From Alphaproteobacteria bacterium (GTDB lineage Bacteria > Pseudomonadota > Alphaproteobacteria > Rickettsiales > UBA3002), in contig JANNSK010000114.1 in the NCBI GenBank assembly GCA_031402515.1, positions 1-59,311 of the forward strand: 59,311 bases of DNA. The letters run 5' to 3'. The notes beneath the pieces were generated by a model. The model did not search any database, had not been told where the DNA came from, and saw only the letters and a program-made list of their open reading frames with translations. A program made the translations under genes and the position numbers. This document shows, one piece after another, positions 4,106 to 57,914 of the stretch (positions are counted from its first letter, which is position 1; each line of letters begins with the position of its first letter).

Positions 4106-4122
4106 TTCACAAAACCTTAACA
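4106..4122 (+). promoter_or_regulatory. Tandem-hexamer box TTCACAaaaccTTAACA
   Basis: Two direct hexamers in 11-bp phase, 74 nt upstream of the ATG at 4196. Member of the 13-site box family described in the findings. Confidence 0.5.
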
Positions 4123-4195
4123 TTCAAGGGGTGGGTATTCATGATATGTTAACCATGTAGTAGTAGAATCAGAGCATCTGAGGCTAGCAAAGACC

Positions 4196-4891
4196 ATGGT
4201 TGAGAAAAGTACACCAGCAACACCATCACCCAAAGCGACGGCGGCGAAGCCGGTTGTGGCTGTGACGAAATCCGGCAAGCCGCTCGCTTCATTCGGCGAT
4301 CCGCTCCAACGGGCGATGGCTGAGCTGATGGTCGTTGTAGAGCCAAGAGAGTCAGAGAAGGCGCATGTTAAGGCCGACCTAGAGCAGCTACAAAAAAAAC
4401 ATGCTGGCCACCCAGAAGTCTATATCGATCCAAAGTTTGTACGCGACAATACAGAAACTCTTGCCATGCGTAACCTCAATGACTGGGCAAACATTTCTGC
4501 CGCACAGAAATATGTATTCCTCCGCCGTGCCGAGGATTATGCGCGTGCTTGGCAGGAAACCGATAAAGATCCAGAGCCTTTAAAGACGCCCGCGGCGATA
4601 AAAAAATATTGCGTTGATCAATTTACCGAAGGTTACAACAAGGCTGCCGGTTGGATGGCAGATCGTGATCGGGAGTTGAATAGGCAATGGGACACATGGA
4701 GTAAAGACTCATATTGGAAGCCCGCTGTTCACGGTTTAGTGCAAACTTTAATCGTCCCGACAGTAGTGGCTGCCACCCGCCTTCCCACGGCTGATGACAT
4801 CTTTTGGCACTCAGCACCCGCGACGCCCGACGTAAAAAAAAACCCTCAGCCATCCTCGATGACCCCGCTCAAAAAGGAGCACCAGCTATGA
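4196..4891 (+). CDS. Hypothetical protein (231 aa), no signal peptide
   Basis: Long ORF downstream of the box. Its stop overlaps the next start (ATGA at 4888-4891). It shares a helical motif (AAQKYVFLRRAEDYARAW...DPEPLKTP) with the repeats of the downstream giant protein. Confidence 0.6.
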   Translation: MVEKSTPATPSPKATAAKPVVAVTKSGKPLASFGDPLQRAMAELMVVVEPRESEKAHVKADLEQLQKKHAGHPEVYIDPKFVRDNTETLAMRNLNDWANISAAQKYVFLRRAEDYARAWQETDKDPEPLKTPAAIKKYCVDQFTEGYNKAAGWMADRDRELNRQWDTWSKDSYWKPAVHGLVQTLIVPTVVAATRLPTADDIFWHSAPATPDVKKNPQPSSMTPLKKEHQL

Positions 4892-7800
4892 CAAACTTCC
4901 CACCCAAAGTCGTCGCGAAGCCAGAACCGAATGCGGTGGTCGCGAAGCCAGTTGGCGCGAAGCCTGCGTATAAAAACGCGAATGACGACGCCGAACTTAA
5001 GTTCGCTATGTCGGAATTGTTGGGTACTACGTTTGAAGATATATCGGCGCGCGGCGAGTTGAACGCTGTCATGAGCAGTAGCGATGAAATGCCAGACGGC
5101 GCATCGCCTGGGTATCTCAGCCCGGCATTCCGCCAGAAATTTATGCAAGCAGGGCATAACTACAACAATAGCGATTCCGCGCGCGTATCGAAACTTCTGA
5201 TCTACAAGATGCTGGAGCGCGCGGCGGAGGTGGCTAACTACAAGGCTGCCAATGGCGGCAATACTCCGACGAAATTGAGTTTTGCCGCAGCGAATGTGCG
5301 GCGCGACGAAGCCTTCCACCCCCAAAAAAATGCCGCGGATGCGCTCCATTTCGCCCGCGAAGAAATGCTTAGTCGCTGGAATCCTAATCATATGCGCGCG
5401 GTCCCATTACTGAATGGCCTTGATGTGAATGACCCCAATGTTTTGACAGAAACGTCACGCAATAAATTCCTGGATATGTACAAAGACCAATATTGGATTG
5501 ATGCTGGCGCAAGTTATATCTGGGCCTATGCGGTCAATCAGCGTGCCGAAGGCATGTTGAATTTTTGGAAAACTCCGGGAAATAACGACAAGACTCCGCC
5601 GGCCATCGACGTTAGAAAAGCGTATGATGATGCGAAAGTATTGGCCGATCATTACAAGCCTGCCGCTCCTGCAATCCCCGCGCCTGCGACAACGCCTGCG
5701 GCCACCCCACCACCTGCGGCCAAACCTGCGCCGGGGATGCCGGGCGCACGCACGCCTAAGGATGCGCTTGAGTATGCGAAGGAAGAGATACTGAATAACA
5801 ATGTATGGAATACTGGGTCCCAGAGCACGCGTGATGCGTACAATGCGCGTTTCCCAACGGTGGTCACCCCCCAAATGCTAACGAAGGATTACCGCAAAGC
5901 TTTTATCACCAAAGCGGCGAAAACGGAGGGCATCGAGCGCACAACCTATGTCAAAATATACAACGTCTACCTGCATGCCGAAGAGGTGATGAATTTCTGG
6001 AACAAAAATCCCGGAAAAAATCCTCCCAAGCTGTCAGAAGGTACGATTGATCAGCGCATTGCCGACACAGAAAATAAGCAGGTCGCGACACTTGCAAAGA
6101 CACTGGCAGAAGAGGAAGCCAAGAAAACCGCGAAGACAGCACCACCGGTGGCGGGCAGAAAACCCGCCGCTATGCCGCCAGCAGCGAATACACCAACTCC
6201 ATCGACCACTGCGCCTGTTGTGCCGCTACCGGTAGCACCCGCCGCGCCGGTACCACCGGCATCGACCAAACCCGCCAAACCCGCCAAACCCGCCACACCA
6301 GCCAATCCGCTGCCACCAGCCACTCCGACGCCGACTGCGGGCGGTAAGCCTGCTGTAGCGACGGCTCCGTTGTTCAGTTTTGGGAGAGCAGAACCCTCGC
6401 TGCAAAGCGTCGAGAAGGCGATTTATGACCTCGCCAAGAAGAAGTGGGACAAAGACGTCGCCGCCCATAAGAAATGGGAAGAGGCAGCCAAGGCTGATGC
6501 ATCCAAAGCAGGTAATGAGCCAAAGGTTGATGATGAGCCGAAATATGCAGACTATGTGACTCAGTACACCGGCAAAACGGCGACTCAGGCGCTGATGCTT
6601 GAGGCGACTGACGGCAAACTTAATGCGATTCCTACTGGCCATCTCCCGGCGGCGCAGGCGCAGGCGCTCGGTGCGATTCTGTTGCGCATTGAGAAGAACG
6701 GTAACGGCACCGCGCGGCCCGATGTGACGGTGATGGGCGCTGATAACCAGCCGCATCAGCTCGAACCTAAAGAACTGTCCGCATGGCTGCAGGAAACCGC
6801 GCCGGATCAGCAGAAGCGCCCGGCGGGCGTTACGGCGGGCATGCCAGTCGATGCATGGGCGAAGGCGCGGAATGTCGGGCTGACGGCGCTTGCGTCGTCC
6901 TATCCGCTCCTGAACCCTAGTGATAGTGGTGACCCGTATGTTATCGAAACTGCCAAAGGGCAACGTCGCGTGGTCAGCAACGGCGTCGTTACCTTGCCGC
7001 TCGACGGGTATTACGGCGGTATCGATAACGGCACGCATGCTGCCGATGGTGACATCATCGACGTCTATATCAGTACCAAGGCGCACGATATGATGAAGGC
7101 CACGCCTCCCAAGGAGGTGAAGGGCAAAGTGTTCGTTATGCAGCAGATGGATAAAGGCAAAGACAATGACGAATTAAAAATCGGCATCGGTTACGACTCC
7201 GCCGAAGCGTTTGTCGCGGCCATGGCAAGCACGTGGGACAACAAGCAAAAATTCGTCGATGACAATCTCGGCAAAGTAGTCGAAATGACGTGGAGCCAGT
7301 ATTACGATAAAAATGGGCTGCAGGCGGCGCTGGCAGAGAAAGAAGCAACGTGGAAAAACGATAGAGTCAATCTCACGGTGGATGAGGTGGTGGCATTGCC
7401 GGCAATGCAGGACCCAAAAGTTACCGTTTACCAGCCTGCCCAACTTACTGCCGCGGCGCTCGCGTCACGCGCGGCTCCAGCAGCACCGGCAGCGAAACCG
7501 CCCGTTGCACCTGCAGTTGTTCCGCCGACGCCCGCGCCCGTCGTTCCGCCTGCAGTGCCTGCAGCACCCGTTGAAAAACCTGCAGAGGGGAAACCGCCTG
7601 TTGTCGAAAAACCGGTGGATGTGGAAAAGCCCAAACCGATCGTACCGACGCCGACGCCGACAGAAAAACCGGTCGAGCCATTAAAACCGGTGCCACCACC
7701 GACACCGAAACCCGAAACACCCGTCGGCCCGACCATCCAAACACTGATGGCGACACCACAAAAAAGCAGCAAAGCTTTCGAAGCGATGGGCATGTATGAT

Positions 7801-8829: not shown

Positions 8830-8966
8830 GCCCTCACCCGAAATTTGCTAAAGCAAATTTCGACCTCTCCCAAGGGAGAGGTAACCGTGGGGCGCGATCT
8901 TGCCTCTTGTTTACCTCTCCCTTGGGAGAGGTCGAAAATCGTTTTTCACGATTTTCGGGTGAGGGC
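8830..8966. repeat. Repeat family A, copy A2
   Basis: Same outer arms (GCCCTCACCC / GGGTGAGGGC) and inner CCTCTCCC-N3-GGGAGAGG hairpins as A1. Confidence 0.85.
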
Positions 8967-9023: not shown

Positions 9024-10904
9024 ATGCACGTCGGACAACTGGTCAGCAGTCTTTTTTCCGTATTCCATGATCGCCGCAAATCGGTGGCGCAGATTCAGGC
9101 CGAAGCGAGCGCCAGCGTCCTCAAACGCACATTGGGCAAATGGAACCTCGTCAGCCTCGGCATTGGCTGCATCATCGGCGCCGGTATTTTCGTGATGACC
9201 GGCACCGCCGCCGCCAACCATGCGGGCCCTGCGATCATCCTCTCCTTCGTATTTGCCGGATTCGCCTGCGCTTTCGCGGGCTTATGTTACGCTGAATTGG
9301 CCTCGGTGCTGCCGGTATCCGGCTCCGCCTATACCTATGCCTATGCCACGCTCGGCGAAGTTTTCGCCTGGGTGATGGGCTGGCTGCTGCTGCTCGAATA
9401 CGGGCTTGCCGCCTCGACGGTCGCCGTCGGCTGGTCGGGCTATATCGTCAGCTTCCTCAAAGATTTCAACATCGTCATCCCGCCGGAATATACGGCGGCG
9501 ACGGGCCATGCGGTGAAACTCGCCAGCGGCCAGATGGGCACGGCGATCTTCAACCTCCCCGCCTTCCTCGGCGTGACGGCGGTAACGGCGCTGCTCATTG
9601 TCGGCGTCAAAGAATCGGCGAGCGTGAACAATGTTATCGTGCTGATCAAAGTATCGGTGATCGTGCTGTTCATCGCGATCGGGATTTTCTACGTGAACCC
9701 GGACAATTGGCATCCGTTTATACCGGAGGAAAAAGGGCCGGGTGAATTCGGCTTTAGCGGCATCCTGCGCGCCTCGTCGATCATCTTCTTCGCCTATGTC
9801 GGTTTCGAGGCGGTCTCAACCGCGGCGGCCGAGGCCAAGAATCCGCAGAAGGATATGCCGTTCGGCATCATCGGCTCACTGGTGATTTGTACGATTATCT
9901 ATATGGCGGTGGCGCTGGTGCTCACCGGCATTGTGCATTACCCGGAGCTCAACGTGCCCGACCCGATCGCGGTGGCGGTCGACCAAATCGGCCTCGGCTG
10001 GTTCTCCTTCGTCATCAAGGTCGGCGCCATCATGGGCCTGTCGTCGGTGATGCTGGTGCTGCTCTACGGTCAGACGCGGATTTTCTACACGATGAGCAAA
10101 GACGGGCTGCTGCCGGTCGTACTCAGCCACGTGCATAAGAAGTTCCGTACGCCGTGGATCAACACGATTATCGTCGGCGTGCTGGTGTCGATTGCGGCGG
10201 GTACGATGCCGATCAACGAACTGGGCGACCTGGTGTCGCTCGGCACGTTATGTGCCTTTGCCATTGTGTGCATGAGCGTATTGTGGCTGCATTATAAACA
10301 GCCGAAGCTAGCGCGGCCGTTCTCCACCCCGTGGAAACCGTGGATTCCGCTGCTTGGCATCGCTTTCTGCGGCTACCTCATCGCGCAGATGCCGTGGGCG
10401 ACCTTCGTGCAGCTGAAATGGTTCTTCCTGCTCGGCGCGCTGATCTATCTGTTCTACGGACGGGGCAACAGCCTGCTCGGTGCCACCACCGATAAGGGCT
10501 CGATGAATGGCGTGCAGCAGCTCTGGCTGCTGGTGGGCCTCGTTGGCGCGCTCTATATCGGCACGCTTGGCTTCCGCCAGCCGGACACGATGTCCTCCGT
10601 CGCCGATATGATCCAGATCGTCATGGCGCTGCTGGTCACCGGGGCGCTGGCGCTCAGCGGTATTCTCTGGAGTCAGGCGAAGAAAGGCAAAGCGGGCGAT
10701 ATGGGTGACGACTGGTTCAACACGCTGTTCGGTCTCTATGTCTTCGGCTTGCTGCTGTCGGTGATGCTGGATATTGGATCGTCGAAAGAGCTGCTGGCGC
10801 CCGCCTTGGTGCCGTATCTCTCCGCCCTGTTCGCCTTCACCACCAGCCTCGCGCTGCTGTGGTCGGTGCCGCTGCCGGGCTGGCTCAGAAGAAGGTTCAG
10901 CTAA
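9024..10904 (+). CDS. APC-superfamily amino-acid permease with an extra C-terminal transmembrane extension
   Basis: The ORF-track start at 8796 reads through repeats. AGGAGA Shine-Dalgarno motif then ATG at 9024 (MHVGQLV). Typical permease N-terminus (LGKWNLVSLGIGCIIGAGIFVMTG) and many transmembrane helices. About 150 extra C-terminal residues contain further hydrophobic helices. Confidence 0.85.
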   Translation: MHVGQLVSSLFSVFHDRRKSVAQIQAEASASVLKRTLGKWNLVSLGIGCIIGAGIFVMTGTAAANHAGPAIILSFVFAGFACAFAGLCYAELASVLPVSGSAYTYAYATLGEVFAWVMGWLLLLEYGLAASTVAVGWSGYIVSFLKDFNIVIPPEYTAATGHAVKLASGQMGTAIFNLPAFLGVTAVTALLIVGVKESASVNNVIVLIKVSVIVLFIAIGIFYVNPDNWHPFIPEEKGPGEFGFSGILRASSIIFFAYVGFEAVSTAAAEAKNPQKDMPFGIIGSLVICTIIYMAVALVLTGIVHYPELNVPDPIAVAVDQIGLGWFSFVIKVGAIMGLSSVMLVLLYGQTRIFYTMSKDGLLPVVLSHVHKKFRTPWINTIIVGVLVSIAAGTMPINELGDLVSLGTLCAFAIVCMSVLWLHYKQPKLARPFSTPWKPWIPLLGIAFCGYLIAQMPWATFVQLKWFFLLGALIYLFYGRGNSLLGATTDKGSMNGVQQLWLLVGLVGALYIGTLGFRQPDTMSSVADMIQIVMALLVTGALALSGILWSQAKKGKAGDMGDDWFNTLFGLYVFGLLLSVMLDIGSSKELLAPALVPYLSALFAFTTSLALLWSVPLPGWLRRRFS

Positions 10905-16392: not shown

Positions 16393-16419
16393 GTCACACA
16401 ATCTTCACAATCATTAACA
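16393..16419 (+). promoter_or_regulatory. Tandem-hexamer box GTCACAcaatcTTCACAatcaTTAACA
   Basis: Three direct hexamers spaced 11 and 10 bp apart. GCTATCTA lies 8 nt downstream and the start codon is about 50 nt away. Confidence 0.6.
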
Positions 16420-16467
16420 AGTAATTGTGCTATCTATTTCCTTTATCAAGCAATGATGGAGCAAGTT

Positions 16468-19177: not shown

Positions 19178-19227
19178 GCCTTTGCCTCCCGCAAACAGGA
19201 ATCCATGAGTCTATTATAGCGCAATTG

Positions 19228-19244
19228 TGTGAAGATTTTATGAA
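19228..19244 (-). promoter_or_regulatory. Tandem-hexamer box TTCATAaaatcTTCACA (read on the minus strand)
   Basis: Followed on the minus strand by caatTGCGCTATAAT (a -10-like element, plus-strand 19213-19220). Lies upstream of the start at 19177. Confidence 0.55.
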
Positions 19245-22408: not shown

Positions 22409-22484
22409 ACATCATGCTCTCATTGTGATTTTGTGTGGTTTTGGTTTTATTCCGACCAAGATAGCATAATCGTGGCCTGATAAG

Positions 22485-22501
22485 TGTGACAATTGTGTGA
22501 A
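22485..22501 (-). promoter_or_regulatory. Tandem-hexamer box TTCACAcaattGTCACA (read on the minus strand)
   Basis: Followed 16 nt later by TATGCTATCT. Lies about 77 nt upstream of the start at 22408. Confidence 0.6.
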
Positions 22502-26060: not shown

Positions 26061-26282
26061 CGCGCCTCCTCGTTGTCTTTCTGCCAATCCGCGCCAGCGG
26101 ATATACTCGCCAGAGGCGGAGGTGCTTTGGGATTTTTTTAGCGCGGCTTCCGTTTTTGCCTGTTCGTCAACGGTGCGCACATAGGCGATCGACTGCGGTG
26201 TATGGGCGGCGCTGTCGAGTACCAAGCTTAGATTATTCGAGCGGAGAATTGTTACAGTTTTATGACAGTCGGGGTGGTTGTG

Positions 26283-26609: not shown

Positions 26610-26626
26610 GTCATACAGTTGTAACA
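26610..26626 (+). promoter_or_regulatory. Tandem-hexamer box GTCATAcagttGTAACA
   Basis: 11-bp phase, with GGCATAAT 7 nt downstream and the ATG at 26656 30 nt downstream. A second AT-variant pair GTTAATttttcGTTAAT lies at 26506-26522. Confidence 0.5.
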
Positions 26627-26655
26627 ATTTTGTGGCATAATGAAAGTGGGCGACT

Positions 26656-31706: not shown

Positions 31707-31723
31707 TGTTAAATGTTTGTGAC
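31707..31723 (-). promoter_or_regulatory. Tandem-hexamer box GTCACAaacatTTAACA (read on the minus strand)
   Basis: About 93 nt upstream of the RTX start at 31614. Confidence 0.55.
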
Positions 31724-34626: not shown

Positions 34627-34689
34627 GGCCGATCTCCCTGTTCAGAATTTGCTGATACTGGAGCCATACCAGAAAAATGGTTAATTTTC

Positions 34690-34717
34690 ATTAACAGTTT
34701 TGTGAAGGTTTTGTGAC
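34690..34717 (-). promoter_or_regulatory. Tandem-hexamer box GTCACAaaaccTTCACAaaactGTTAAT (read on the minus strand)
   Basis: Three hexamers in 11-bp phase, about 64 nt upstream of the start at 34626. Confidence 0.6.
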
Positions 34718-35866: not shown

Positions 35867-35893
35867 AGTTAAATGCTGGTGCATTTTTGTGAC
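35867..35893 (-). promoter_or_regulatory. Weaker tandem-hexamer box GTCACAaaaatGCACCAgcatTTAACT (read on the minus strand)
   Basis: Same 11/10-bp geometry as the box at 16393, but the middle hexamer is degenerate. About 170 nt upstream of the first flp gene. Confidence 0.4.
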
Positions 35894-40197: not shown

Positions 40198-40226
40198 TTC
40201 ACAACAATCTTCACAAAACTGTCACA
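40198..40226 (+). promoter_or_regulatory. Tandem-hexamer box TTCACAacaatcTTCACAaaactGTCACA
   Basis: Three hexamers beginning 4 nt after the terminase stop. GGTATGGT lies 14 nt downstream. Upstream of the NTPase-fusion gene. Confidence 0.6.
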
Positions 40227-40285
40227 CTTCTTTGGGAATGGGTATGGTAGGGGATGAGTATGATTCATGTTTTGAGGAGATGAGA

Positions 40286-47340: not shown

Positions 47341-47667
47341 ATGGATGCGATTTTAGCCTCGCGGTTGCGCGAGCGGATTACGCTTGAGCGACCTGAGCGC
47401 ACGGAAGATGACTATGGCGGTGGCGAGATCGCATGGACGGCAGTGGCGACGGTTTATGCCAGTATCAAGCCGATTATTGGCACGGCGCGTGAGATTGCCC
47501 GCGCCGATCAGGTGGTGGCGATTGCGGGTTATCGCATCACCATTCGCCTCCGTGACGATGTCGATGCCAGCATGCGGATTCTGTGGAAGTCGCGCATGTT
47601 GATGATTCATTCGCTGCATGAAAGCGCGACGACACTTGAAATTTTAGCCTACGAGGAGATGGCATGA
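47341..47667 (+). CDS. Head-tail adaptor (SPP1 gp16-type; RcGTA g7-like)
   Basis: 108 aa. LRERITLERP....DDYGG....W..VATVYASIKP...RE pattern. Confidence 0.8.
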   Translation: MDAILASRLRERITLERPERTEDDYGGGEIAWTAVATVYASIKPIIGTAREIARADQVVAIAGYRITIRLRDDVDASMRILWKSRMLMIHSLHESATTLEILAYEEMA

Positions 47668-48068
47668 GCACGCTCGCATTGAACAGCGTCCAGCAGGGGC
47701 TTTACAGCAAACTGATCGGCGACGGTGTGCTCATGGATATGATTGCCGGCGTGTTCGACGCGGTGCCTGAGCGCACGGCAATGCCCTATATCATCATCGG
47801 CGATGGGGTGGCGAAGGAAGCGGCGGCACTCGAAAGCGCCAGCGTGCAATGCGAACTCGTCATCGATGTATGGACGGATGCGGCAGGCCGCAAAACCGCG
47901 CTGACAATTATGAATCGGATTTATGGGCTACTGCATCAAGGGACGCTCAGCCTATCCGGCTTTGAAGTGATCCTGATGCGCTGCGAGGAAGCGGCGACCC
48001 GGCTGGAACCCGATGGGCCGCATATGCGGGGGGAGATGCTTTTTAGTGCGCTGGTAAGGGTGGTGTAA
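47664..48068 (+). CDS. DUF3168-type GTA protein (RcGTA g8-like)
   Basis: ATGA overlap with g7. 134 aa. VQQGLYSKLIGDGVLMDMIAGVFDAVPE...PYIIIGD is typical of this family (from memory). Confidence 0.75.
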   Translation: MSTLALNSVQQGLYSKLIGDGVLMDMIAGVFDAVPERTAMPYIIIGDGVAKEAAALESASVQCELVIDVWTDAAGRKTALTIMNRIYGLLHQGTLSLSGFEVILMRCEEAATRLEPDGPHMRGEMLFSALVRVV

Positions 48069-48254
48069 GCCGACAGCCAACAGCCGACAGCCGACAGCCA
48101 ACAGCCGACAGCCGACAGCCGACAGCCGACAGCCAACAGCCGACAGCCTACAGCCGACAGCCAACAACCAACAACCAACAACCAACCAACCAACCAACCA
48201 ACCAACCAACCAACCAACCAACAGATTCTTAGCTGTAAGCTGTGGGCTGTAGGC
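48069..48254. repeat. Expanded 7-nt word array: about 14 GCC(G/A/T)ACA units, then ACCAACA units, then about ten CCAA units, then the inverted words AGCTGTA AGCTGTG GGCTGTA GGCT
   Basis: Starts at the first base after the g8 TAA and fills the gap between convergent genes. The distal words are complementary to the proximal heptamers. Confidence 0.85.
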
Positions 48255-48257
48255 TAA

Positions 48258-48824
48258 CTACTTCTTCTCTCTTATCGGTGAAAGCCGCGTATTGCGGCGC
48301 CAGACATCGATCTGGTAGGCCATGCGCTCGGTATCGACATCGCCGCAGCTGAGGCGGCCATAGACCATGGCATAACTTCCCTGCGTCGCTGCTGCGCGCT
48401 GACGGACGAGCGCGTCGGCTTCATGAATGTTTTTCGCCAGCTTCTTTACTTGCGCGTAGACGAGCAGCATTTGCCAGGTGTCGCTATATTCGTTGGGTTT
48501 CATTTTCTTGCATTTCACCAGCAGGTAACTGTTGAGCAGGATATTGTCGATCTGCTCCACCGCCTCGCTTTGATGCCGCTGGGCCGCGCTCAGTCGTGCA
48601 CCGGGGCTGAATAGTTCGATAATGGGATTGTTGGTGGTTTGCGACGGCCATGGGGCTTCAGAAGGCGGCGGTGTTACGGGAAGCGGCACGGCCGACGGCG
48701 ATACCATCGATATGGCGATAAACAATAGCGTGACCAGCCCCGCCATGCCGACAAGCGGCCAGCGGTAACCGGGAGGAATGCGCTGGCGCGCTTCCTTAAG
48801 GAGCTGGCGGAGTAGCGTTTTCAT
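48258..48824 (-). CDS. Hypothetical single-pass membrane protein
   Basis: In-frame ATG at 48824 (MKTLLRQLL...WPLVGMAGLVTLLFIAISMV). It overlaps the upstream gene's 3' end by 29 nt; alternative start at 48746. Confidence 0.5.
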   Translation of the reverse strand: MKTLLRQLLKEARQRIPPGYRWPLVGMAGLVTLLFIAISMVSPSAVPLPVTPPPSEAPWPSQTTNNPIIELFSPGARLSAAQRHQSEAVEQIDNILLNSYLLVKCKKMKPNEYSDTWQMLLVYAQVKKLAKNIHEADALVRQRAAATQGSYAMVYGRLSCGDVDTERMAYQIDVWRRNTRLSPIREKK

Positions 48825-49296
48825 GGCAATCGATGGTGATGTTTTCACCCTGGTTGATGGTGTGGGTCCATAAGCGGTCGTAAGCGAAGCAGCGATAACC
48901 AATGACCAGTTGCTTAAAGCAGGAGGCAAGCGGTTCGATTTTCAGCTCCTCGCTGGTGACGTAAAAGGTGCAGTCGAGTTTGCCGTTGCAGCGCGCGCCG
49001 AGTACGCTCAGCACATTATCGGAATTGATACGCGGCAGCGGTTTTAATGACGCGTCCGCGGTATCGTTTGCCACTTTCTGTTGGAGGCGCAACTGCTGGC
49101 GATTCAGGTTTTCCTGCTCGATGAAGCTGTTGCAGTTCTCGCCCCAGCTGGCGGTGTAAATTTGGATAAAGCGGTCGCCGGCGACTTGGCTGGGGCCCGG
49201 TGGCGGCTTATTGGGGTCGATGATCACGTAGAGCACCACAATCAAGGCGCAGATGATGGTGAGCGCCATCGCATGAAATTTCCAATTGTGCCGCAT
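48796..49296 (-). CDS. Membrane-anchored protein with a SUEL/rhamnose-binding-lectin-like Cys pattern
   Basis: N-terminal helix AMALTIICALIVVLYVI. Then IQIYTASWGENC...LGARCNGKLDCTFYVTSEELKIEPLASCFKQLVIGYRC, which resembles the Gal_Lectin signature (A.YG...C ... C.G...C......DPC.G..K.L.V.Y.C). Confidence 0.55.
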   Translation of the reverse strand: MRHNWKFHAMALTIICALIVVLYVIIDPNKPPPGPSQVAGDRFIQIYTASWGENCNSFIEQENLNRQQLRLQQKVANDTADASLKPLPRINSDNVLSVLGARCNGKLDCTFYVTSEELKIEPLASCFKQLVIGYRCFAYDRLWTHTINQGENITIDCHENATPPAP

Positions 49297-49396
49297 TGAT
49301 TGCCCCGGTTGAGTGAGGAATAGCTAACCTGAGGAATCTCGGGCGTCAATGGAATGCAGTAGTCTGATGGCGGGTGGCGGACTGAACGGCCAATGC

Positions 49397-50422
49397 TTAT
49401 TGAATACTGAAGGTGTTGCCCAGATCAGTCTTGGGCTTGTTGTTGGTATTCAAGACCAGTTTTTTATCGACGGGTGGTGTTGCGGCGGCGGGTGGTGTGC
49501 CTTCGACTGCCTCGCCGCCGGTTACAACTTTCGGGAGTGGGTTATCCAGCGCAGTGGCTTTGGATGGGTCGGGCGGCGTGGTGTCGGCTTGGGTGGTTTT
49601 TTTGCGTTCGGCCGCTGCTTGAAGATATGCGTTGAGTTCTCCTCCTGCCGCGGCAAGCATATCATGACCAGCGGAGTCTTTTCCTGACACCATTTCGCGC
49701 AGGGTAAAGGCGTTAGTGGCGTCATCCGGCGACCCTTTACGTACCGCTTCTTTCAGCATGCCGAAGATACCGGTAAGCGATGCATCTGGACGATCCCACA
49801 TATTCGAAAGCAAGCCTTTCCATTGGCTGCTCGCCAATGTTTTTTGTTCAATGCCGACAATTGATGCGGCGGCTTTTTGAGCGATGATAGCACGCTGGCT
49901 ATCATCAAGATCGTCGCCATGCTTGGCGGCAAGTGCATCCGAGAGACTGACTACTAAGTTATCATAGATGGCCTTGGCAGTAACGATGGCGGATTTTGGA
50001 TCCTTGTCCATTGACTTAAAGCCGATATATTCTTTGATAGCTGTGTTACAAATCTCTTGCAGGCCAACGGTGACTTCTTTGGGTAATTGGAGTGCGTTGG
50101 TGAGTTCTTCAAAACCAGAAAAACCTTTGATTTTGGATAACAGCTCTTGTTTTGCGTGTGCCGTCGCCTGGAAAATAACGCCGAAGATGCTGCCTACGAT
50201 CCAATCGTAAATACCCTGCAATACAGCCGCGAAGCCACTTACATATTCGCCAATGATGGGGATCTTGGAAAGTTTGAATCCCCATAGCTCGTACGCTTCT
50301 GCTTGTTCGGCGATGGTGGATGTGGCGCTTTGTATACTATCTGCAAGATCGCCGCCGCCCATACTTCTGACAGTATCGGTGACGATTGACAGGGGATTTA
50401 TCGCTGCAACTGCTGTGCCCAT
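49397..50422 (-). CDS. Hypothetical protein (341 aa), no Sec leader
   Basis: GAGGAAAT Shine-Dalgarno motif. Looks AT-richer than its flanks by eye. Hydrophobic stretch IPIIGEYVSGFAAVLQGIYDWIVGSIFGVIF. Confidence 0.65.
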   Translation of the reverse strand: MGTAVAAINPLSIVTDTVRSMGGGDLADSIQSATSTIAEQAEAYELWGFKLSKIPIIGEYVSGFAAVLQGIYDWIVGSIFGVIFQATAHAKQELLSKIKGFSGFEELTNALQLPKEVTVGLQEICNTAIKEYIGFKSMDKDPKSAIVTAKAIYDNLVVSLSDALAAKHGDDLDDSQRAIIAQKAAASIVGIEQKTLASSQWKGLLSNMWDRPDASLTGIFGMLKEAVRKGSPDDATNAFTLREMVSGKDSAGHDMLAAAGGELNAYLQAAAERKKTTQADTTPPDPSKATALDNPLPKVVTGGEAVEGTPPAAATPPVDKKLVLNTNNKPKTDLGNTFSIQ

Positions 50423-50463
50423 ATTTCCTCATCTCCATCATAGCAAAAGGGAGGGGCTTTGAA

Positions 50464-50480
50464 TGTGAAGATTTGATGAC
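50464..50480 (-). promoter_or_regulatory. Tandem-hexamer box GTCATCaaatcTTCACA (read on the minus strand)
   Basis: Followed 19 nt later by GCTATGAT. About 42 nt upstream of the start at 50422. Confidence 0.55.
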
Positions 50481-50488
50481 GATTTTTA

Positions 50489-50634
50489 GCTCCCCCCTTG
50501 CGGGGGAGCGGGATTTTCTCTTGCAACGCCGTGGGGCGATGGGCATACGAAATTACCCCCCACGCAACACGCGTCGCTAAAGCTAGCGTGTTGCCGCTCC
50601 CCCTCAAGGGGGGAGCTAGGCCCCGTGCTCACGG
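50489..50634. repeat. Repeat family B, copy B5
   Basis: Sits between the two divergent boxes at 50464 and 50643. Confidence 0.85.
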
Positions 50635-50642
50635 CCAAAACC

Positions 50643-50659
50643 TTCACGCAATTGTCACA
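50643..50659 (+). promoter_or_regulatory. Tandem-hexamer box TTCACGcaattGTCACA
   Basis: Followed 18 nt later by GCTATAAT (50678-50685). ATG at 50708. Confidence 0.6.
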
Positions 50660-50707
50660 CTTTTCAGCGCTTTTTCAGCTATAATTTAGGGTGAAGGATA
50701 GTGTCTG

Positions 50708-51982
50708 ATGGATAGAATGAGACCACATGGTTTTGACGTTGCACGTGACGGGCCGTTGCGCTTCGATGGCGATGATGCGCGCGGGAGTGACGCGCCCGAT
50801 GCGCAGGATGCGCGCGGCGGTGACGACAAGCCGATACGCATATTCAATATCATCGAAGTCAGTCCGCAAATCGTCGCCTACCTGCAGGCGGGCTACAACG
50901 TCATCTCGGATTTCGCGACGAAATTCGTCGCGCAGCCGGTCTATGACGGCACGGTTTTACTCGCGCAGCGGATGGGTATCAAAGACATCAAGCGCGCGCG
51001 TGGACTGGCGGCGGCGACCACTTTTGCTGTTGATACGACGATAAAATCCGCCGGTTATGTGGCGCCATGGTTGGGCTCGGCCCGGGGGCATCGTAAGCAA
51101 CTGAACGCGCTGGCGCGTACATTGGCGCCGGTGCTCGACGAGTTAAAGGGCGGTCATGCGTTGGTGAATCTGCATGCGGTCGGCATCAACGATAACGAAA
51201 TGATTTACGCCCAGCGGCGTAGGCTTGCCGAGGAAGCGCGGATGAGCAATGTGTCGAACGTCATCGACCTGATTATCAATGCCGGTCCCAACGTGTGGTT
51301 CAGCGCGCAACAGCTTCATCGCATGGCATACAGCAACCTGTCGCCGCGCGAACTTGCCCTCAAGGAACATGCCGACGCGCTGAAATCGGAAGGTAATCCG
51401 CGCTGGGAATTCAGGGATGCGAAGGAAACCATCGTCAACACCGCGACGGCTGGTATCGCTGATTACGTGAAGAATCTGCAGACCAAGGCGCTGGAGAAAA
51501 CACGCCAGCATTACTCGGCGATGGAGATGATCCTAGCCCTCGATGAACAGCTTAACAAGCATCCAGGAGCGACGACGATTCGGGCGCCGGGCAAGGATGG
51601 CGACCTGTTCACGCTGGAGAAATATGTGGCGCGGATTATTACCCAGCATCAGCGGGATATGGCGGATATCAGCCCGGCCCATACGGAAATCCGCAATGCG
51701 CTGAAGGAAGATTTGGTGGTGCTCGTGAAGCCTATTGCTGAATCGATCCATAAGGGCAAACTGAGCCCGCTGACGCTGGTGCGCTGGGTCGGCGAAGGCA
51801 AGCTGGTCAAGGATAAGGGCAGGGCGCTGGCGAGCCTTTCCGAAGTTCAGGGTTTGCTGGGGCAGCAGGCGGCGCCTCACGTTCCGGCGATAACCAGCCA
51901 AACTCAGGCGATTAACCGCCTTGGCGGCGAACGGGCGCATCTCGGCACCCTGCACAGCGTTGAACGGGCTTTGAATACGTAA
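50708..51982 (+). CDS. Hypothetical protein (424 aa), no Sec leader
   Basis: GAAGGA Shine-Dalgarno motif. Arg/Asp-rich N-terminus. No family recognised. Confidence 0.65.
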   Translation: MDRMRPHGFDVARDGPLRFDGDDARGSDAPDAQDARGGDDKPIRIFNIIEVSPQIVAYLQAGYNVISDFATKFVAQPVYDGTVLLAQRMGIKDIKRARGLAAATTFAVDTTIKSAGYVAPWLGSARGHRKQLNALARTLAPVLDELKGGHALVNLHAVGINDNEMIYAQRRRLAEEARMSNVSNVIDLIINAGPNVWFSAQQLHRMAYSNLSPRELALKEHADALKSEGNPRWEFRDAKETIVNTATAGIADYVKNLQTKALEKTRQHYSAMEMILALDEQLNKHPGATTIRAPGKDGDLFTLEKYVARIITQHQRDMADISPAHTEIRNALKEDLVVLVKPIAESIHKGKLSPLTLVRWVGEGKLVKDKGRALASLSEVQGLLGQQAAPHVPAITSQTQAINRLGGERAHLGTLHSVERALNT

Positions 51983-52009
51983 GGAATTCAGCGTGTTCAT
52001 AAGTGGAAT

Positions 52010-52026
52010 GTCACACAATCTTCACA
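52010..52026 (+). promoter_or_regulatory. Tandem-hexamer box GTCACAcaatcTTCACA
   Basis: Identical 17-mer to the first two hexamers of the box at 16393. GGTACTCT lies 19 nt downstream. ATG at 52071. Confidence 0.6.
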
Positions 52027-52070
52027 CTAAAAACCCCCGATTTTTGGTACTCTAGAGGCTGGAGTACTCT

Positions 52071-53825
52071 ATGGACCAACAAGGTTTTACAGCAGGAGGC
52101 GTTGGCAGCGTCAGCGAGCCATTGGCCGCTATACCGCGCATGCCCGTTGTGCGCACGGCGAGTAAGACGCCCGTCAAAACGAATGGAACGGGTAAGCCGC
52201 AGGCAGGGATGCCGCCGGTCAATACTGGCAGTACACCGACGATTGGATTTCTCAATAGCTTCAAAAATGCGACCGAACCAATGTGGCTTGTACAGTTTTT
52301 AGGTCTCTTGATGATACCGGTCGCGTGGAGTTTAGATCGTGTCGGGTTAAAAAGCGCGGCCAATGGATTACGCGGTTGGATCATCGCGCCGACCAATGCG
52401 TTGATGAATACCCGCGTCAGGGATGGATTCCATCTGCGTGCCAATGCGGTGGATGAAGCAGCCAAAATCATGCGTAATGTTGGCGGCGATACGGCCACAA
52501 AAGCTTCAGCGTTGGAAACACGATCGGTCGTCCTGCACGGAGCAGCGGCGGAGAGCGGAAAAAAATGGAGCACGTGGTTTGAACCAGCGCGCAAATGGTT
52601 CGGCGATGCGATTGACAATTTCAGCAAAAGTGGTTTTGGAAAATGGGTCGAAGCGCGGGTGAAGGGATTCACCGATTGGCGCATTAACCGTCATGGGCCG
52701 AAAGTTGGCGGCGCTATCGATATGGCGATTGATAGTATCAAGGCTTCCCCGACCGATGTGCAGGCGAAACTTGCGGGCGTACTCACGGATCTGCAGGCGG
52801 CCAAAGGTTTGACGGGCACTACACAAGCGGCCGCACTGGCGAAAGCGGAAGGCCAGATTGGACATATCGTAAAGGGTGTAGAAGGCGCGGGCGCGCAAGC
52901 TGTGCATACGGTCGGTGATCTGGTGAAGACAGCGAAATGGTCGGCGGAAACGCTGGTGAGTCATACGACGGCTGCTGCATCAGGGTTGCGGGCGATGACG
53001 AAGAATCTGCTGCGCAGCGCAGGCAATATCCCGATTTTCTTTGCGGTGGTTGGTGCCGGTGCATTGGCGGGTGCAGCAATGTATGGTCTGAAAGCGCGCC
53101 AAGATAATAAGATCGCGCGCCAAAGCCTCAAAGATATGGCGGCGGATATTGGCGATGCAAAGCATCCGATGATGATTGCGGCATCCAAGATGGCAAAGAA
53201 ACAAAGCAGCGGTCGTTGGATGAGTGCTGGCCTGACGGGCGTTGGGGAAGGCCTCGTGGCCACGCCGATGGGGATGGGGGTAGGGCCGGGGGCAGGCAAG
53301 ATGGGAATGATCGCGTTGGGTGCGGGTTTCCTGCCGAATCTTAGCCAATTACTGGTTCCGGAGAATCATTTGCTCAACGCCTATGCGACGTTGAAGCAAA
53401 ACGAACAGGGGAAAATTACTCTGCCGCCGGAACATAAAATCGACATGGTGCGCCATCTGGTCGCGGCGGTGCCAGCGGTGAATAAGCAGGGCGGCGTGGA
53501 TAATAGATTGTCGCGACCCATCGCAACGGAAATTGTGAAGCGCAATCTGTCGGTGAAGCAAACATTGCAGCTTCTGGCTAATCCGGAGCAGTTCACCGCG
53601 CTCACGAGCGAAGTCGCTGCGGCGCAGAAAAAGATTATCGAGGAAGCTGCCGCGCAGAAAAAAGCCAATGAAGAAACCGCAACACAAAAGCCGGGTGAGG
53701 TGGCAGCGACGCCGCCTGTTCCGGCGAAGCCAAAAACGGAGACGCCATCGCTGACGATTAATGCTGCAACCACCAGCAACGAAGGTCGCCTCGCTGACAT
53801 CCAGCGCGCGATGGGGCAGGTGTAG
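52071..53825 (+). CDS. Hypothetical protein (584 aa) with internal glycine-rich hydrophobic segments
   Basis: GGAG lies 6 nt before the ATG. Hydrophobic segments NIPIFFAVVGAGALAGAAMYGL and GLVATPMGMGVGPGAGKMGMIALGAGFL. Repeated AAQKK motif near the C-terminus. Confidence 0.7.
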   Translation: MDQQGFTAGGVGSVSEPLAAIPRMPVVRTASKTPVKTNGTGKPQAGMPPVNTGSTPTIGFLNSFKNATEPMWLVQFLGLLMIPVAWSLDRVGLKSAANGLRGWIIAPTNALMNTRVRDGFHLRANAVDEAAKIMRNVGGDTATKASALETRSVVLHGAAAESGKKWSTWFEPARKWFGDAIDNFSKSGFGKWVEARVKGFTDWRINRHGPKVGGAIDMAIDSIKASPTDVQAKLAGVLTDLQAAKGLTGTTQAAALAKAEGQIGHIVKGVEGAGAQAVHTVGDLVKTAKWSAETLVSHTTAAASGLRAMTKNLLRSAGNIPIFFAVVGAGALAGAAMYGLKARQDNKIARQSLKDMAADIGDAKHPMMIAASKMAKKQSSGRWMSAGLTGVGEGLVATPMGMGVGPGAGKMGMIALGAGFLPNLSQLLVPENHLLNAYATLKQNEQGKITLPPEHKIDMVRHLVAAVPAVNKQGGVDNRLSRPIATEIVKRNLSVKQTLQLLANPEQFTALTSEVAAAQKKIIEEAAAQKKANEETATQKPGEVAATPPVPAKPKTETPSLTINAATTSNEGRLADIQRAMGQV

Positions 53826-53826
53826 T

Positions 53827-54687
53827 ATGGCAGGAACTCCCAGAGTTGCACCAACACCCATAACGCGAAAAGTCAGCGGTTTTAGTAATACGTTATTCTG
53901 GGGATCGATCGGTGTAGCAATTGCGATCCCGATTTTTGGACCAATGCTTTCGCACTTCGTCGATCGTTGGCGCAATCGGCATGATACGAATAATGAACTG
54001 AGAACGCGTGCTGACTGGTATCGGTTTCAGGTGGCCAAGCAGCTTGGGATGAATCCGGCGGATGTGACGCAACGCGATTTGCTGCGCGCGGCGGAACTCA
54101 ATCCGCAACTCGCGCGGTCGGTGAAGGAAGTGTATAATAAAGAGGGCGACAATAACCGCTTCTCGCTGCTGACGATGGCGGGTGCAAGCTTAGTGCCTGT
54201 TGCCGGCGGCGGAATCAAAGCGATGGCGATGACGATGGGCGGTGCGATTGGCGGCGGAACGCTGGCGTCGTTGATGACGAAGTCGCGCGTTGATCCGCAG
54301 GATGTGATTGAGGTGATTAACGCGCAGGTGATGGCCGGACGTGGCGCGCGTAATGCAGTGTCGCCGCAGCTGGTATTCATGCTGCGTGTGGCGCAGAATG
54401 ATGCGTTGGGAAAACAGATTTCACAGATGTATGGCAAGGCGTTTCATACAATGACGGAGGCTGAACAAACGGGCGTGATGCAGGCCTATCCTCAGCTTGC
54501 CAGTGCCTGTGCCTCGGAAGCCTATGCGGTATCGACCGGCGTCATGCAGGTGCAGGAGCTGATGGCGGCGCCGCCGAATATGAACAGTATGGCGGCGAGA
54601 TATGCGCCGTCGCCGCGCAGTCAGTCGTTCGTGGCGCAGCTTGAAACCGACCGTGCCAAGCAGGTGGCGAATACGCCAAGCGTTTAG
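53827..54687 (+). CDS. Hypothetical protein (286 aa) with bilobed hydrophobic segments
   Basis: The ATG lies 1 nt after the upstream stop, suggesting an operon. Hydrophobic segments LFWGSIGVAIAIPIFGPML and LLTMAGASLVPVAGGGIKAMAMTMGGAIGGGTLASLM. Confidence 0.65.
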   Translation: MAGTPRVAPTPITRKVSGFSNTLFWGSIGVAIAIPIFGPMLSHFVDRWRNRHDTNNELRTRADWYRFQVAKQLGMNPADVTQRDLLRAAELNPQLARSVKEVYNKEGDNNRFSLLTMAGASLVPVAGGGIKAMAMTMGGAIGGGTLASLMTKSRVDPQDVIEVINAQVMAGRGARNAVSPQLVFMLRVAQNDALGKQISQMYGKAFHTMTEAEQTGVMQAYPQLASACASEAYAVSTGVMQVQELMAAPPNMNSMAARYAPSPRSQSFVAQLETDRAKQVANTPSV

Positions 54688-57127: not shown

Positions 57128-57574
57128 ATGACAACTCCGCACGACATCGTCGCGATTGCGCGCGGGCTGGTTGGCGTGCGGTTCGCGCATCAGGGACGCT
57201 GTCCTGACCAAGGGCTTGATTGTTTGGGATTCCTGTTGGCAGTGGCGCGCCAAGCGAAATTGATGCTGCGCGGGGTGTATCCGGAAACCTATGACCGTCG
57301 CGACTATGGCGCGCGGCCGGATACGGAATTTCTAGAGTGCCGGTTGAAGACATTGCTGACGCCAGTGACGCATATGGGCGTTGCCGATATTTTATTGCTG
57401 CGGGTGGATGGCCGCGCGCAGCATCTGGCCATGGTCAGCGACTATCCGGAGCCTGACGCATGGGGCATCATTCATGCCTACGCGCCCGCGCGAAAAGTGG
57501 TTGAACATCGGCTGGATAGGTGGTGGCAGTCGGCGATTGCCGGAATTTACCGATTGCCTTGTGTATTAGAATGA
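57128..57574 (+). CDS. NlpC/P60-family phage cell-wall peptidase (RcGTA g14-like)
   Basis: 148 aa. IARGLVGVRFAHQGRCPDQGLDCLGFLL (catalytic Cys context) and a later HLAMV..., as in the TIGR02219-type family. Confidence 0.85.
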   Translation: MTTPHDIVAIARGLVGVRFAHQGRCPDQGLDCLGFLLAVARQAKLMLRGVYPETYDRRDYGARPDTEFLECRLKTLLTPVTHMGVADILLLRVDGRAQHLAMVSDYPEPDAWGIIHAYAPARKVVEHRLDRWWQSAIAGIYRLPCVLE

Positions 57575-57865
57575 GAATGACAGGCGCGGACCGACGAACC
57601 AGTTATGTTTTGAGGTGCGGGACACGGTCATGCGCGACGATACGTTGTTATGCTCGGCAATCGGTGCGCCGAGTTCGTAGCCGTTTTCCATGCGGGTGAG
57701 TTTTACCCGGTAGGGATCTTTGGCTTCGTCGTAATCGAAAGAGAAGAACATGACCGTTTCGCCTTCACGCGCATGCGTTTTGATGCGGGAATAATCCATG
57801 GTATTATTACTACCGCAAGCGGTGAGCATCACCAGTACGCAGCTCAGTGTAAGGGCTCTTACCAT
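57566..57865 (-). CDS. Small lipoprotein (99 aa) inserted antisense between g14 and g15
   Basis: In-frame ATG at 57865 gives MVRALTLSCVLVMLTAC (lipobox). It has its own tandem-hexamer box and GCTATACT upstream. It overlaps the g14 3' end by 9 nt. Confidence 0.6.
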   Translation of the reverse strand: MVRALTLSCVLVMLTACGSNNTMDYSRIKTHAREGETVMFFSFDYDEAKDPYRVKLTRMENGYELGAPIAEHNNVSSRMTVSRTSKHNWFVGPRLSFSF

Positions 57866-57897
57866 AGGTGAAGTATAGCAGATTTTTGGGCAAATAA

Positions 57898-57914
57898 CGT
57901 TACGATTGTGTGAC
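57898..57914 (-). promoter_or_regulatory. Tandem-hexamer box GTCACAcaatcGTAACG (read on the minus strand)
   Basis: Followed 18 nt later by GCTATACT. About 33 nt upstream of the start at 57865. Confidence 0.55.

Follow-up and report, generated by a model that had tools for sequence, protein, structure and literature searches.

The window analysed here is the entire 59,311-nt contig JANNSK010000114.1 (assembly GCA_031402515.1; 55.5% G+C), assigned to an alphaproteobacterium of the Rickettsiales lineage UBA3002. Our subject is a short tandem-repeat element in its intergenic regions, called the box in the following. An initial annotation of the sequence had described it as two to three direct copies of the hexamer (G/T)T(C/A)A(C/T)A at 13 places, and had read these as the mark of a dispersed regulon of accessory genes. 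We found that the repeat unit is 11 bp long with the consensus yyKTCAYAmAA and that arrays consist of two units and sometimes three. They are phased to a TG-extended -10 element. The reading as a dispersed regulon is strengthened by the conservation of the box at orthologous promoters across the lineage. Based on geometry and conservation, the box is probably a class II activator site of the OmpR/PhoB type, as far as the level of the family is concerned. By its sequence it closely resembles the published site of the response regulator CenR, which is the closest known system.

All 13 strings quoted for the box were present in the window at the expected positions; sites on the minus strand are named here by their highest coordinate. 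The underlying pattern, (G/T)T(C/A)A(C/T)A-N4-6 followed by the same hexamer, gave 13 matches at 11 loci. Fewer than one such pair had been predicted to occur by chance in 59 kb, and 300 dinucleotide-preserving shuffles of the window bore this out (mean 0.55, maximum 3). A 22-column position weight matrix (PWM) was built from the 13 sites, and both strands of the window were scanned. The building sites scored 18.7–32.5. When every site was left out of the matrix in turn, 12 of them scored 19–31 and site 35893 scored 11.0. The rest of the window reached a maximum of ~13 on both strands, except for shifted registers of the same arrays. At a score of at least 18 there were 14 matches, with 0.05 expected. 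All 14 were intergenic, and intergenic DNA makes up 15% of the window on our gene map. Each of the six sites located between co-directional genes is oriented toward the downstream gene, and in divergent regions each site is the one closest to the gene that it faces. The proposed orientation toward the downstream gene thus holds for all high-scoring sites. Also the proposed repeat spacing stood: the start-to-start distance is 11 bp in most pairs and 10–12 bp in the others, and it is kept in more than 120 sites.

The list of sites itself had to be revised slightly. Twelve sites are solid, and a fourteenth was added on the minus strand at 26266. Site 35893, which had been assigned to the Flp pilin genes, is doubtful: besides its low leave-one-out score, 13 relatives keep the promoter of the Flp pilin genes without a box, and therefore this site should not be counted. 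The statement that housekeeping genes are free of the box was confirmed for aroK, aroB, the gene of a corC-type transporter, an amino-acid permease gene, the GST gene, lepA, msrB and dedA. There is likewise no box before the OmpA-family gene, rimK or any structural gene of the gene transfer agent (GTA)-like cluster in the window.

The initial annotation had noticed sequences of the type GCTATnnT or GGTAT downstream of most sites. A downstream element is indeed real, but it is better described as a TG-extended -10, TGnTAnnnT. This element lies 17–19 nt after the relevant hexamer at eight window sites (4106, 16393, 22501, 34717, 50480, 50643, 52010 and 57914). At 19244 and 26610 it is about one helical turn closer (6–7 nt). 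The TG is present in eight of the ten -10 elements assigned in the window. For site 4106 a wrong element had been picked before (GGTATTCA), and the one in register is TGATATGTT at 4142–4150. When sites from the window and from relatives were taken together, G[CG]TAnnnT was found downstream of the box in 59 sites. It starts 18–19 nt after the box in 42 of them, 30 nt after it in seven and 6–7 nt after it in three. These spacing classes are ~11 nt apart and therefore differ by whole helical turns. The information content of 55 sites from relatives is restricted to two blocks, the box (-4 to +18) and a second block T-t-t-g-n-T-A-t-a-n-T (+33 to +44). No information content was found between the two blocks or upstream of the box. 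Together, box and TG-extended -10 hold ~25 bits of information. No consensus is visible in the 6 nt where a -35 would be expected, and a scan of 40–58.5 kb with the standard -35/-10 consensus detected none of the box promoters. The proximal hexamer does not serve as a -35 element, because it is located 20–22 nt from the TAnnnT hexamer, which is too far.

Leader lengths were surveyed in 102 unique canonical promoters from the window and all related loci. The ATG follows exactly 6 nt after the -10 in 16 of these promoters (~16%). This sharp class validates the assignment of the -10 and identifies leaderless transcripts. Leaders were longer than 20 nt in 56 of the 102 promoters. A Shine-Dalgarno sequence, typically GGTGAAGGA or GAGGAA, was present in 50 of the 75 promoters with leaders of at least 10 nt. 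The targets had been called leaderless in general, which applies to this minority of the lineage and not to the rest; in the window it applies to one of 13, the lipoprotein gene with its ATG at 57865. The genes starting at 16453 and 26656 have leaders of ~7–9 nt without a Shine-Dalgarno sequence, and the remaining window targets have leaders of 10–45 nt, mostly with one. If the first base of the start codon in leaderless transcripts is set as +1, the distal hexamer occupies -50/-49 to -45/-44, and the 17-mer is centred at -42. The canonical pair spans about -50 to -34.

We examined the conservation of the box in related genomes. A search of GTDB representative genomes with the GTA capsid protein yielded 71 loci. 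The closest ones (65–77% identity) come from metagenome-assembled genomes (MAGs) labelled 'Rickettsiales bacterium', 'Alphaproteobacteria bacterium' or 'Azospirillum', the last label being apparently a mistake. The box promoter is conserved at syntenic genes in ~40 related MAGs covering 37–64% GC, namely at the genes that we label T10-like, T11, T12, T3-like and T5-like, at the 308-aa gene and at the RTX gene. Relatives carry a divergent pair of boxes ~6 kb after the capsid start, another box ~1.9 kb further on and often a fourth before the 308-aa orthologue. The proteins behind these conserved boxes are only 25–40% identical. The divergent pair corresponding to boxes 10 and 11 is kept in more than 15 relatives. 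Orthologues of the orphan 50708–51982 (28–39% identity) keep the box in 16 loci, and those of the orphan 52071–53825 keep it in 11 loci, most of them leaderless. The box is also kept before the RTX orthologues in two loci (L028 and L042). A search of the GTDB representative genomes with orphan 50708–51982 returned nothing, and its homologues were seen only by tblastn in the syntenic loci. GTA loci of unrelated alphaproteobacteria and other phyla (L046–L072 except the related L048, L054, L058 and L062) contain no box. Loci centred on LepA were collected from the nearest relatives (88–91% LepA identity). In the nearest one, L137, a T3-like PG_binding gene beside lepA has a box, and in L138 the orphan at the position of 26656–27762 keeps its box. 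GC content, RTX genes and Flp pilins had hinted at a predator of the Micavibrio type (PMC3189940), but this idea is unsupported, as the LepA search gave MAGs only, down to 77% identity. Exact-protein look-ups made to extend the window gave no match for one protein and only a 932-nt read contig for the other.

Metagenome contigs were scanned with a single pattern, GTCACAMAANCTTCACA-N18-19-TGNTA. This resulted in 60 loci, and the downstream genes fall into 56 families that are almost all unrelated to the window proteins. The matches are genuine, because the flanking positions left unspecified in the pattern fit the consensus (AATT before the box). Pfam matches were obtained for two of ten family representatives, DUF1465 (RcdA) and an SLT lytic transglycosylase. 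In loci that were not selected for boxes (L133, L134 and L136–L139) we counted ~10 box promoters per 104 kb, versus 14 per 59 kb in the window. From this density the regulon should be large, and extrapolation gives probably some hundreds of promoters per genome. The rcdA (DUF1465) gene was seen with a perfect box and an in-register TG-extended -10 in two low-GC relatives (L074 at 2985, L080 at 1710).

The proteins encoded behind the boxes are mostly without recognisable relatives. Only four Pfam matches were obtained among the window targets (the PG_binding_1 gene, the RTX protein, the NTPase_I-T gene and the Flp pilins), and the others had no match in Pfam, NCBIfam, PHROG or PDB sequences. 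The product of 17582–19177 has an N-terminal PG_binding_1 domain, and its C-terminus reads like a CHAP/NlpC-type peptidase. Several targets contain long hydrophobic segments rich in glycine and alanine and linkers rich in proline and alanine, and one carries a lipoprotein signal peptide. Box 4106 probably also drives the 1283-aa InPase-domain protein; a metagenome homologue of this InPase-like protein has a perfect box of its own (L123). The G+C content at third codon positions is 0.61 in targets versus 0.67 in other genes (p=0.01).

Several unrelated box-driven proteins end in a tail of the form [H]-x-G-[RTKS]-[LIVM]-x8-10-COOH, fixed in its position to the C-terminus (e.g. ...SNEGRLADIQRAMGQV and ...AHLGTLHSVERALNT). 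It was found in the products of 50708–51982 and 52071–53825 and in L078, L129, L130, L131 and others. Counted by gene family, its enrichment is weak (4 of 66 versus 14 of 727, p=0.055); the strict form occurs in 2 of 66 versus 0 of 727 (p=0.007).

The initial annotation had attributed the box to a regulator of the OmpR/PhoB family. This is supported by the geometry, with direct, co-directional 11-bp repeats phased to a -10 and no -35, and by the likeness to CenR sites described below; the gene of the regulator was not found. The following mechanism would account for the observations. The box would be bound by a dimer or oligomer of a winged-helix response regulator of the OmpR/PhoB family acting as class II activator, and RNA polymerase would need the bound, presumably phosphorylated, regulator at these promoters. 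This regulator would most likely be the lineage's CenR, which together with CenK makes up a two-component system of the cell envelope, or else a CenR-derived paralogue. The box promoters drive self-contained units of fast-evolving, mostly unannotatable proteins. Glycine-rich membrane segments are present in many of these proteins, as are linkers of low complexity or domains directed at the cell wall. The units are dispersed among the housekeeping genes and also within the GTA cluster, and they would form one large accessory regulon that is switched by the signal of the cognate kinase.

The comparison with CenR was made with two published systems. In Rhodobacter sphaeroides the CenR regulon was defined by chromatin immunoprecipitation sequencing (ChIP-seq), RNA sequencing (RNA-seq) and electrophoretic mobility shift assays (EMSA) on two promoters (PMC9275681). 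The motif is TGA-N8-TGA, the consensus of the 31 listed sites is TCACGCAATCGTGAC, and 28 of the 31 sites point in the direction of transcription and lie immediately upstream of the -35 (PMC9275681). Most of the targets encode envelope or secreted proteins, among them peptidoglycan (PG)-binding proteins, a cell-wall hydrolase, L,D-transpeptidases and lipoproteins (PMC9275681). A matrix of these 31 sites could be aligned with that of the box without any change of orientation, TCAC falling on TCAC. The mean column correlation over 15 columns was 0.70, which was reached by none of 1000 column-shuffled controls (p<0.001). In Sinorhizobium meliloti the CenR-dependent srlA promoter (PsrlA) contains AGTCAC-N6-GTGACT with its centre at about -42 and its left arm at -50 to -45 (PMC11328730). 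Saturation mutagenesis demonstrated that the T and the A of the TCA tolerate no change, and that the C tolerates A but neither G nor T (PMC11328730). The base use of the half-site was compared with these rules, using 121 unique, independent lineage sites outside the window from which the seeded ones were excluded. T makes up 98% of the bases at position 2, and A makes up 99% at position 4; at position 3 there is C in 88% of the sites, A in 11% and never G. Thus the half-site frequencies of the lineage follow the rules from S. meliloti, and the C/A at position 3 is the same ambiguity that had been written as (C/A) in the initial hexamer. The co-directional orientation of the box and its centre at -42, with +1 deduced from the leaderless class, fit the placement of CenR sites.

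In summary, box and CenR site have in common an 11-bp direct repeat, a T-(C/G)-A-C half-site with invariant T and A and only C to A allowed, and a CAATC-like spacer. Both are co-directional and lie just upstream of or overlapping the -35, centred near -42, and both regulons contain genes for extracytoplasmic and cell-wall-related proteins. The promoters differ in that here the -10 is TG-extended and some transcripts are leaderless. CenR targets elsewhere include cenR itself, tolQ, srlA/RSP_1807, msrA, surA, dsbC and similar genes, whereas the box targets are orphans of this lineage; tolQ and tolB are absent from every locus that was fetched, and the cenR gene of the lineage was not reached. 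Judged from the match of the sites, the chances are close to even that the regulator is the lineage's CenR orthologue or a CenR-derived paralogue.

Several observations weigh against the proposed mechanism. Both half-sites are TCA here, whereas the promoter-proximal one is TGA in Rhodobacter and Sinorhizobium. The CenR regulons characterised so far comprise a few dozen envelope genes that are conserved and mostly encode a signal peptide; the targets here are orphans specific to the lineage, and a signal peptide is present in few of them. A density of one box promoter per 4–10 kb, implying hundreds, is also unlike known CenR regulons. The operon of msrB and a periplasmic thioredoxin (24343–25290), which might be a counterpart of the CenR targets msrA and srlA, has no box; its thioredoxin-like protein has a WCPNC motif as well as a signal peptide. 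A clear in-register -10 is missing at four of the 14 window sites (none at 31723, 26266 and 35893, ambiguous at 40198). The E. coli Pho-box consensus scored 15.5 on the box matrix, the best of eight motifs, compared with 12.9 for the CenR consensus. Finally, the window contains no Response_reg/Trans_reg_C gene, and in the loci screened by tblastn none was found close to a box. The probes were E. coli PhoB and Caulobacter CtrA and detected only two lone receiver domains in all loci screened. In L139 (7421–9532), an OmpR-family response regulator and a HAMP histidine kinase are located between GST and lepA. This locus has no box, and the window counterpart of the insertion holds only a 125-aa open reading frame.

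A different OmpR-type winged-helix regulator, possibly specific to the lineage, could instead act as master switch of an effector-like secretome, comparable to PmrA. Such a protein might belong to the response regulators or resemble ToxR or SARP. The geometry arguments are equally valid for such a protein. The orphans, the RTX protein, the PG hydrolase-like protein and the InPase and NTPase domains of polymorphic-toxin type resemble an effector set more than a housekeeping envelope regulon, and the very high density of sites unlike known CenR regulons would suit it as well. The PmrA boxes of the Dot/Icm effectors in Legionella and Coxiella are similar in that many accessory genes, unrelated to each other and evolving fast, are marked by a tandem-repeat box a short way upstream of the -10. 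They predict members of the effector set, and the box described here is usable likewise. However, Legionella and Coxiella are gammaproteobacteria, and the PmrA repeat, cTTAATatT, scored only 4.1 on the box matrix, so the precedent drawn from it initially does not extend to the sequence. Genes for type IV or other dedicated secretion systems were not seen in the window. Moreover, the box obeys in detail the half-site rules known for CenR, and these would have to hold for a new regulator too. We consider this alternative rather unlikely.

Another possibility is that the boxes are Pho boxes, and that PhoB activated by phosphate limitation drives an unusual Pho regulon. The E. coli Pho-box unit is CTGTCATAWAW and its box CTGTCATA(A/T)A(T/A)CTGTCA(C/T). 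The 11-bp unit here is almost identical to this unit and the spacer is A-rich, in agreement with the best motif score. PhoB promoters also lack a -35 and need a strict spacing between box and -10 (PMC10294691), and a phoR-like kinase gene exists in the lineage. The phosphate genes themselves did not fit. A pstB gene found by tblastn beside a box-driven orphan led us to three pst loci of relatives (L133, L134 and L136). The phoR-pstC-pstA-pstB operon of these loci has no box at a PWM score of at least 12, and boxes there precede orphans only. No phosphate transporter or phosphatase gene turned up in family searches of the window targets plus ten representatives, of ~66 target families. In addition, the main spacing class places the canonical pair one more helical turn upstream of the -10 than is the case for the E. 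coli Pho box. A Pho regulon is thus quite improbable, and the Pho box does not stand as the precedent that had been proposed. The gene order at the pst loci is phoR-like kinase, pstC, pstA, pstB and two genes for PAS_5 proteins, and neither pstS, phoU nor phoB is adjacent in the three relatives. A box-driven orphan of ~340 aa is convergent to the pst locus in L133 and L136, and likewise in L096.

It was also considered that the boxes are variant sites of the cell-cycle regulator CtrA, a member of the OmpR family. In other alphaproteobacteria CtrA controls the GTA, pili and rcdA, whose product is an adaptor for CtrA proteolysis in Caulobacter. The 11-bp period is shared, some hexamers read TTAACA or GTAACA, and there are targets inside the GTA cluster as well as the rcdA genes with a perfect box. 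The lineage has CtrA boxes as well, some of which share an intergenic region with the box and are in phase with it, and boxes 1 and 7 each have a TTAACCAT half-site a short way downstream. However, canonical TTAA-N7-TTAAC sites are enriched separately in the high-GC loci of the lineage (21 versus ~3 expected), with a spacing of their own of 7–9 nt from TGnTAnnnT, including the GTA capsid promoter of relatives. Thus CtrA apparently keeps its usual specificity and the box belongs to something else. Position 1 of the box is G in half of the cases and position 3 is predominantly C, and the CtrA consensus scored 2.1 on the box matrix. Moreover, the CtrA site stands at the GTA capsid promoter, whereas the KTCACA boxes stand at inserted non-structural genes. 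CtrA is therefore a very unlikely regulator of the box targets. Sites of CtrA type (TTAA-N7-TTAAC or TTAACCAT) were found in the window at 26506–26520, 4149–4156 and 34677–34684, sometimes back to back or in phase with boxes. In relatives they were found in L011, L015 and L017 near 9850–9870, in L120 at 4817 and in L131 at 1731.

Least of all do we expect a non-activator element, be it the operator of a repressor, an element of the UP kind or a -35 determinant read by an alternative sigma factor. In favour of it, TTCACA differs from TTGACA by one mismatch, and TG-extended -10 promoters can work without a -35, so that the upstream protein need not activate. However, the distance of the proximal hexamer from TAnnnT is too long for contact by sigma region 4, two to three phased copies and offsets by whole helical turns are unexpected for a -35 or a core-overlapping operator, and an A/T-rich UP element would have a far less specific sequence. 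Other known motifs were rejected. The published ChvI motifs TTGC-N3-GCAA and GCC-N8-GCC are unlike the box, and the alphaproteobacterial LexA motif (GTTC-N7-GTTC) and the DnaA box scored -5.6 and 0.7 on the box matrix, respectively.

The positions of all boxes and -10 elements in the window are given in Table 1.

Table 1. Boxes and assigned -10 elements in the 59,311-nt window
Feature	Position	Strand	Sequence or hexamers	PWM score	Spacing and context
Box 1	4106..4122	+	TTCACAaaaccTTAACA	29.9	Upstream of orphan 4196-4891 and the following 1283-aa InPase-domain protein
Box 1 TG-extended -10	4142..4150	+	TGATATGTT		19 nt after box 1
Box 2	16393..16419	+	Three hexamers GTCACA, TTCACA, TTAACA	32.5	Upstream of orphan 16453-17532
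Box 2 TG-extended -10	16428..16436	+	TGCTATCTA		18 nt after middle hexamer
Box 3	19228..19244	-	TTCATAaaatcTTCACA	26.4	Upstream of PG_binding_1/putative peptidase gene 17582-19177
Box 3 -10 element	19213..19220	-	GCTATAAT		7 nt after proximal hexamer; short-spacing class
Box 4	22485..22501	-	TTCACAcaattGTCACA	31.3	Upstream of orphan 21152-22408
Box 4 TG-extended -10	22458..22466	-	TGCTATCTT		18 nt after box 4
Box 14 (newly found)	26250..26266	-	GTCATAaaactGTAACA	25.0	Divergent partner of box 5 (26610)
Box 5	26610..26626	+	GTCATAcagttGTAACA	24.0	Upstream of orphan 26656-27762
Box 5 TG-extended -10	26633..26641	+	TGGCATAAT		6 nt after box 5; short-spacing class
Box 6	31707..31723	-	GTCACAaacatTTAACA	25.6	Upstream of RTX-repeat protein gene 30535-31614
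Box 7	34690..34717	-	Three hexamers GTCACA, TTCACA, GTTAAT	29.2	Upstream of orphan 32674-34626
Box 7 TG-extended -10	34663..34671	-	TGGTATGGC		18 nt after third hexamer
Site 8 (doubtful)	35867..35893	-	One consensus hexamer		~100 nt upstream of Flp pilin promoter
Box 9	40198..40226	+	Three hexamers	30.2	Between GTA terminase and NTPase_I-T (DUF84) gene 40232-41404; -10 ambiguous
Box 10	50464..50480	-	GTCATCaaatcTTCACA	27.6	Heads three-gene minus-strand unit 49397-50422, 48796-49296, 48258-48824
Box 10 TG-extended -10	50437..50445	-	TGCTATGAT		18 nt after box 10
Box 11	50643..50659	+	TTCACGcaattGTCACA	25.8	Upstream of orphan 50708-51982
Box 11 -10 element	50677..50685	+	AGCTATAAT		17 nt after box 11
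Box 12	52010..52026	+	GTCACAcaatcTTCACA	28.3	Upstream of orphan 52071-53825 and co-transcribed 308-aa gene 53761-54687
Box 12 TG-extended -10	52045..52053	+	TGGTACTCT		18 nt after box 12
Box 13	57898..57914	-	GTCACAcaatcGTAACG	26.0	Upstream of small lipoprotein gene 57566-57865
Box 13 TG-extended -10	57872..57880	-	TGCTATACT		17 nt after box 13; ATG (57865) 6 nt farther

Some of these sites deserve a comment. Box 14 has no clear downstream gene and faces the half copy of a repeated palindromic element described below. Box 6 occupies a distal position, and its counterparts in relatives are likewise located farther upstream; an AT-rich CtrA-like element, TTAAC-N6-TTAAC, lies between this box and the RTX gene. 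The conserved Flp promoter near site 8 consists of a CTTTGC -35-like element and a TGCTAT-type -10, followed by a CAGCTGG/CCAGCG leader hairpin. It precedes four tandem flp genes (34818–35696) with a leader reaching to ~35790, and the CAGCTGG-N-CCAGCG hairpin of this 5' leader is kept in the 13 relatives. A GC-rich hairpin, GCTCCCCC-N4-GGGGGAGC, was observed beside the divergent box pairs at 26.3–26.6 kb and 50.5–50.6 kb (26395–26425, 50489–50509 and ~50595–50615). The gene of a STAND/AAA_16 ATPase (15047–16252), directly upstream of box 16393, has a third-position G+C of 0.39 versus ~0.67 in its neighbours and is probably foreign DNA.

Boxes are present in the GTA-like cluster, and there are five of them (40198, 50480, 50643, 52010 and 57914) rather than the three reported initially. 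The box-driven genes follow the terminase, fill the interval from g8 to g12 and also separate g14 from g15, and these positions among the structural genes are kept in relatives. The gene order of the cluster passes from the tail-completion gene g8 (47664–48068) to g12 (DUF2460, 54688). Between the two (47664–54687), no recognisable genes for a major tail protein, chaperone or tape measure (g9–g11) were detected. In the window and in close relatives this gap is filled with box-driven genes, and in L043 g12 directly follows g8. The arrangement is similar to prophage morons, which are autonomous units of promoter, gene and terminator inserted between structural genes; the box-driven genes of the cluster likewise have promoters of their own. 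It differs in that the host element is a GTA-like cluster and that the inserted genes share one host-wide box instead of phage promoters.

Just after g8 we observed a tandem repeat (48068–48222) with ~17 copies of the 7-mer AGCCGAC/AGCCAAC followed by ~16 copies of CCAA. Four small genes encoding 164, 122, 112 and 239 aa are located between the Flp pilins and the GTA terminase (35967–36836 and 37105–38220) and are kept in 9–17 relatives. All four are without a match to a family or structure, and the products of 164, 122 and 239 aa had no sequence match in Pfam, NCBIfam or PDB. The four genes are candidates for GTA regulators, and the family evidence does not identify them as such. Elsewhere in the window, Rfam 'whalefall-1' gave six matches that form three back-to-back pairs (1106–1239, 8830–8966 and 46116–46250), with a half copy at ~25990–26060. 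Each pair corresponds to one palindromic repeat of ~150 nt with nested hairpins (GCCCTCACCCGAAATCG...CCTCTCCCAAGGGAGAGG...). Identity among the three copies is 84%, and each of them lies in intergenic DNA. This repeat looks like an element of the repetitive extragenic palindromic (REP) or miniature inverted-repeat transposable element (MITE) kind rather than a small RNA gene.

The kind of site described here is already known; new are the regulon that is marked by the box and the scale of its use. Roughly nine in ten of the box-driven genes are without recognisable function. Box and -10 are informative enough that a simple scan can list members of a large co-regulated set in genomes known from metagenomes only. 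The box promoters are a natural set of leaderless and short-leader promoters with fixed geometry, and they mark the GTA-like cluster of the lineage as a landing pad for regulated cargo genes. A wider scenario, distinctly unlikely when all of its parts are taken together, would be that a CenR-type switch was expanded to the master regulator of hundreds of fast-evolving membrane- or cell-wall-directed proteins, a secretome or 'effectorome' against other cells. Its members would have colonised the GTA-like cluster where g9–g11 are missing, and the H-x-G-(R/T)-(L/V/I)-x8-10-COOH tail would be a common tag for export or turnover. If the regulator is CenR, which in model alphaproteobacteria is essential, regulates the envelope and has a small conserved regulon, it would command a large lineage-specific set of genes here, and thus provide a case of regulon expansion.

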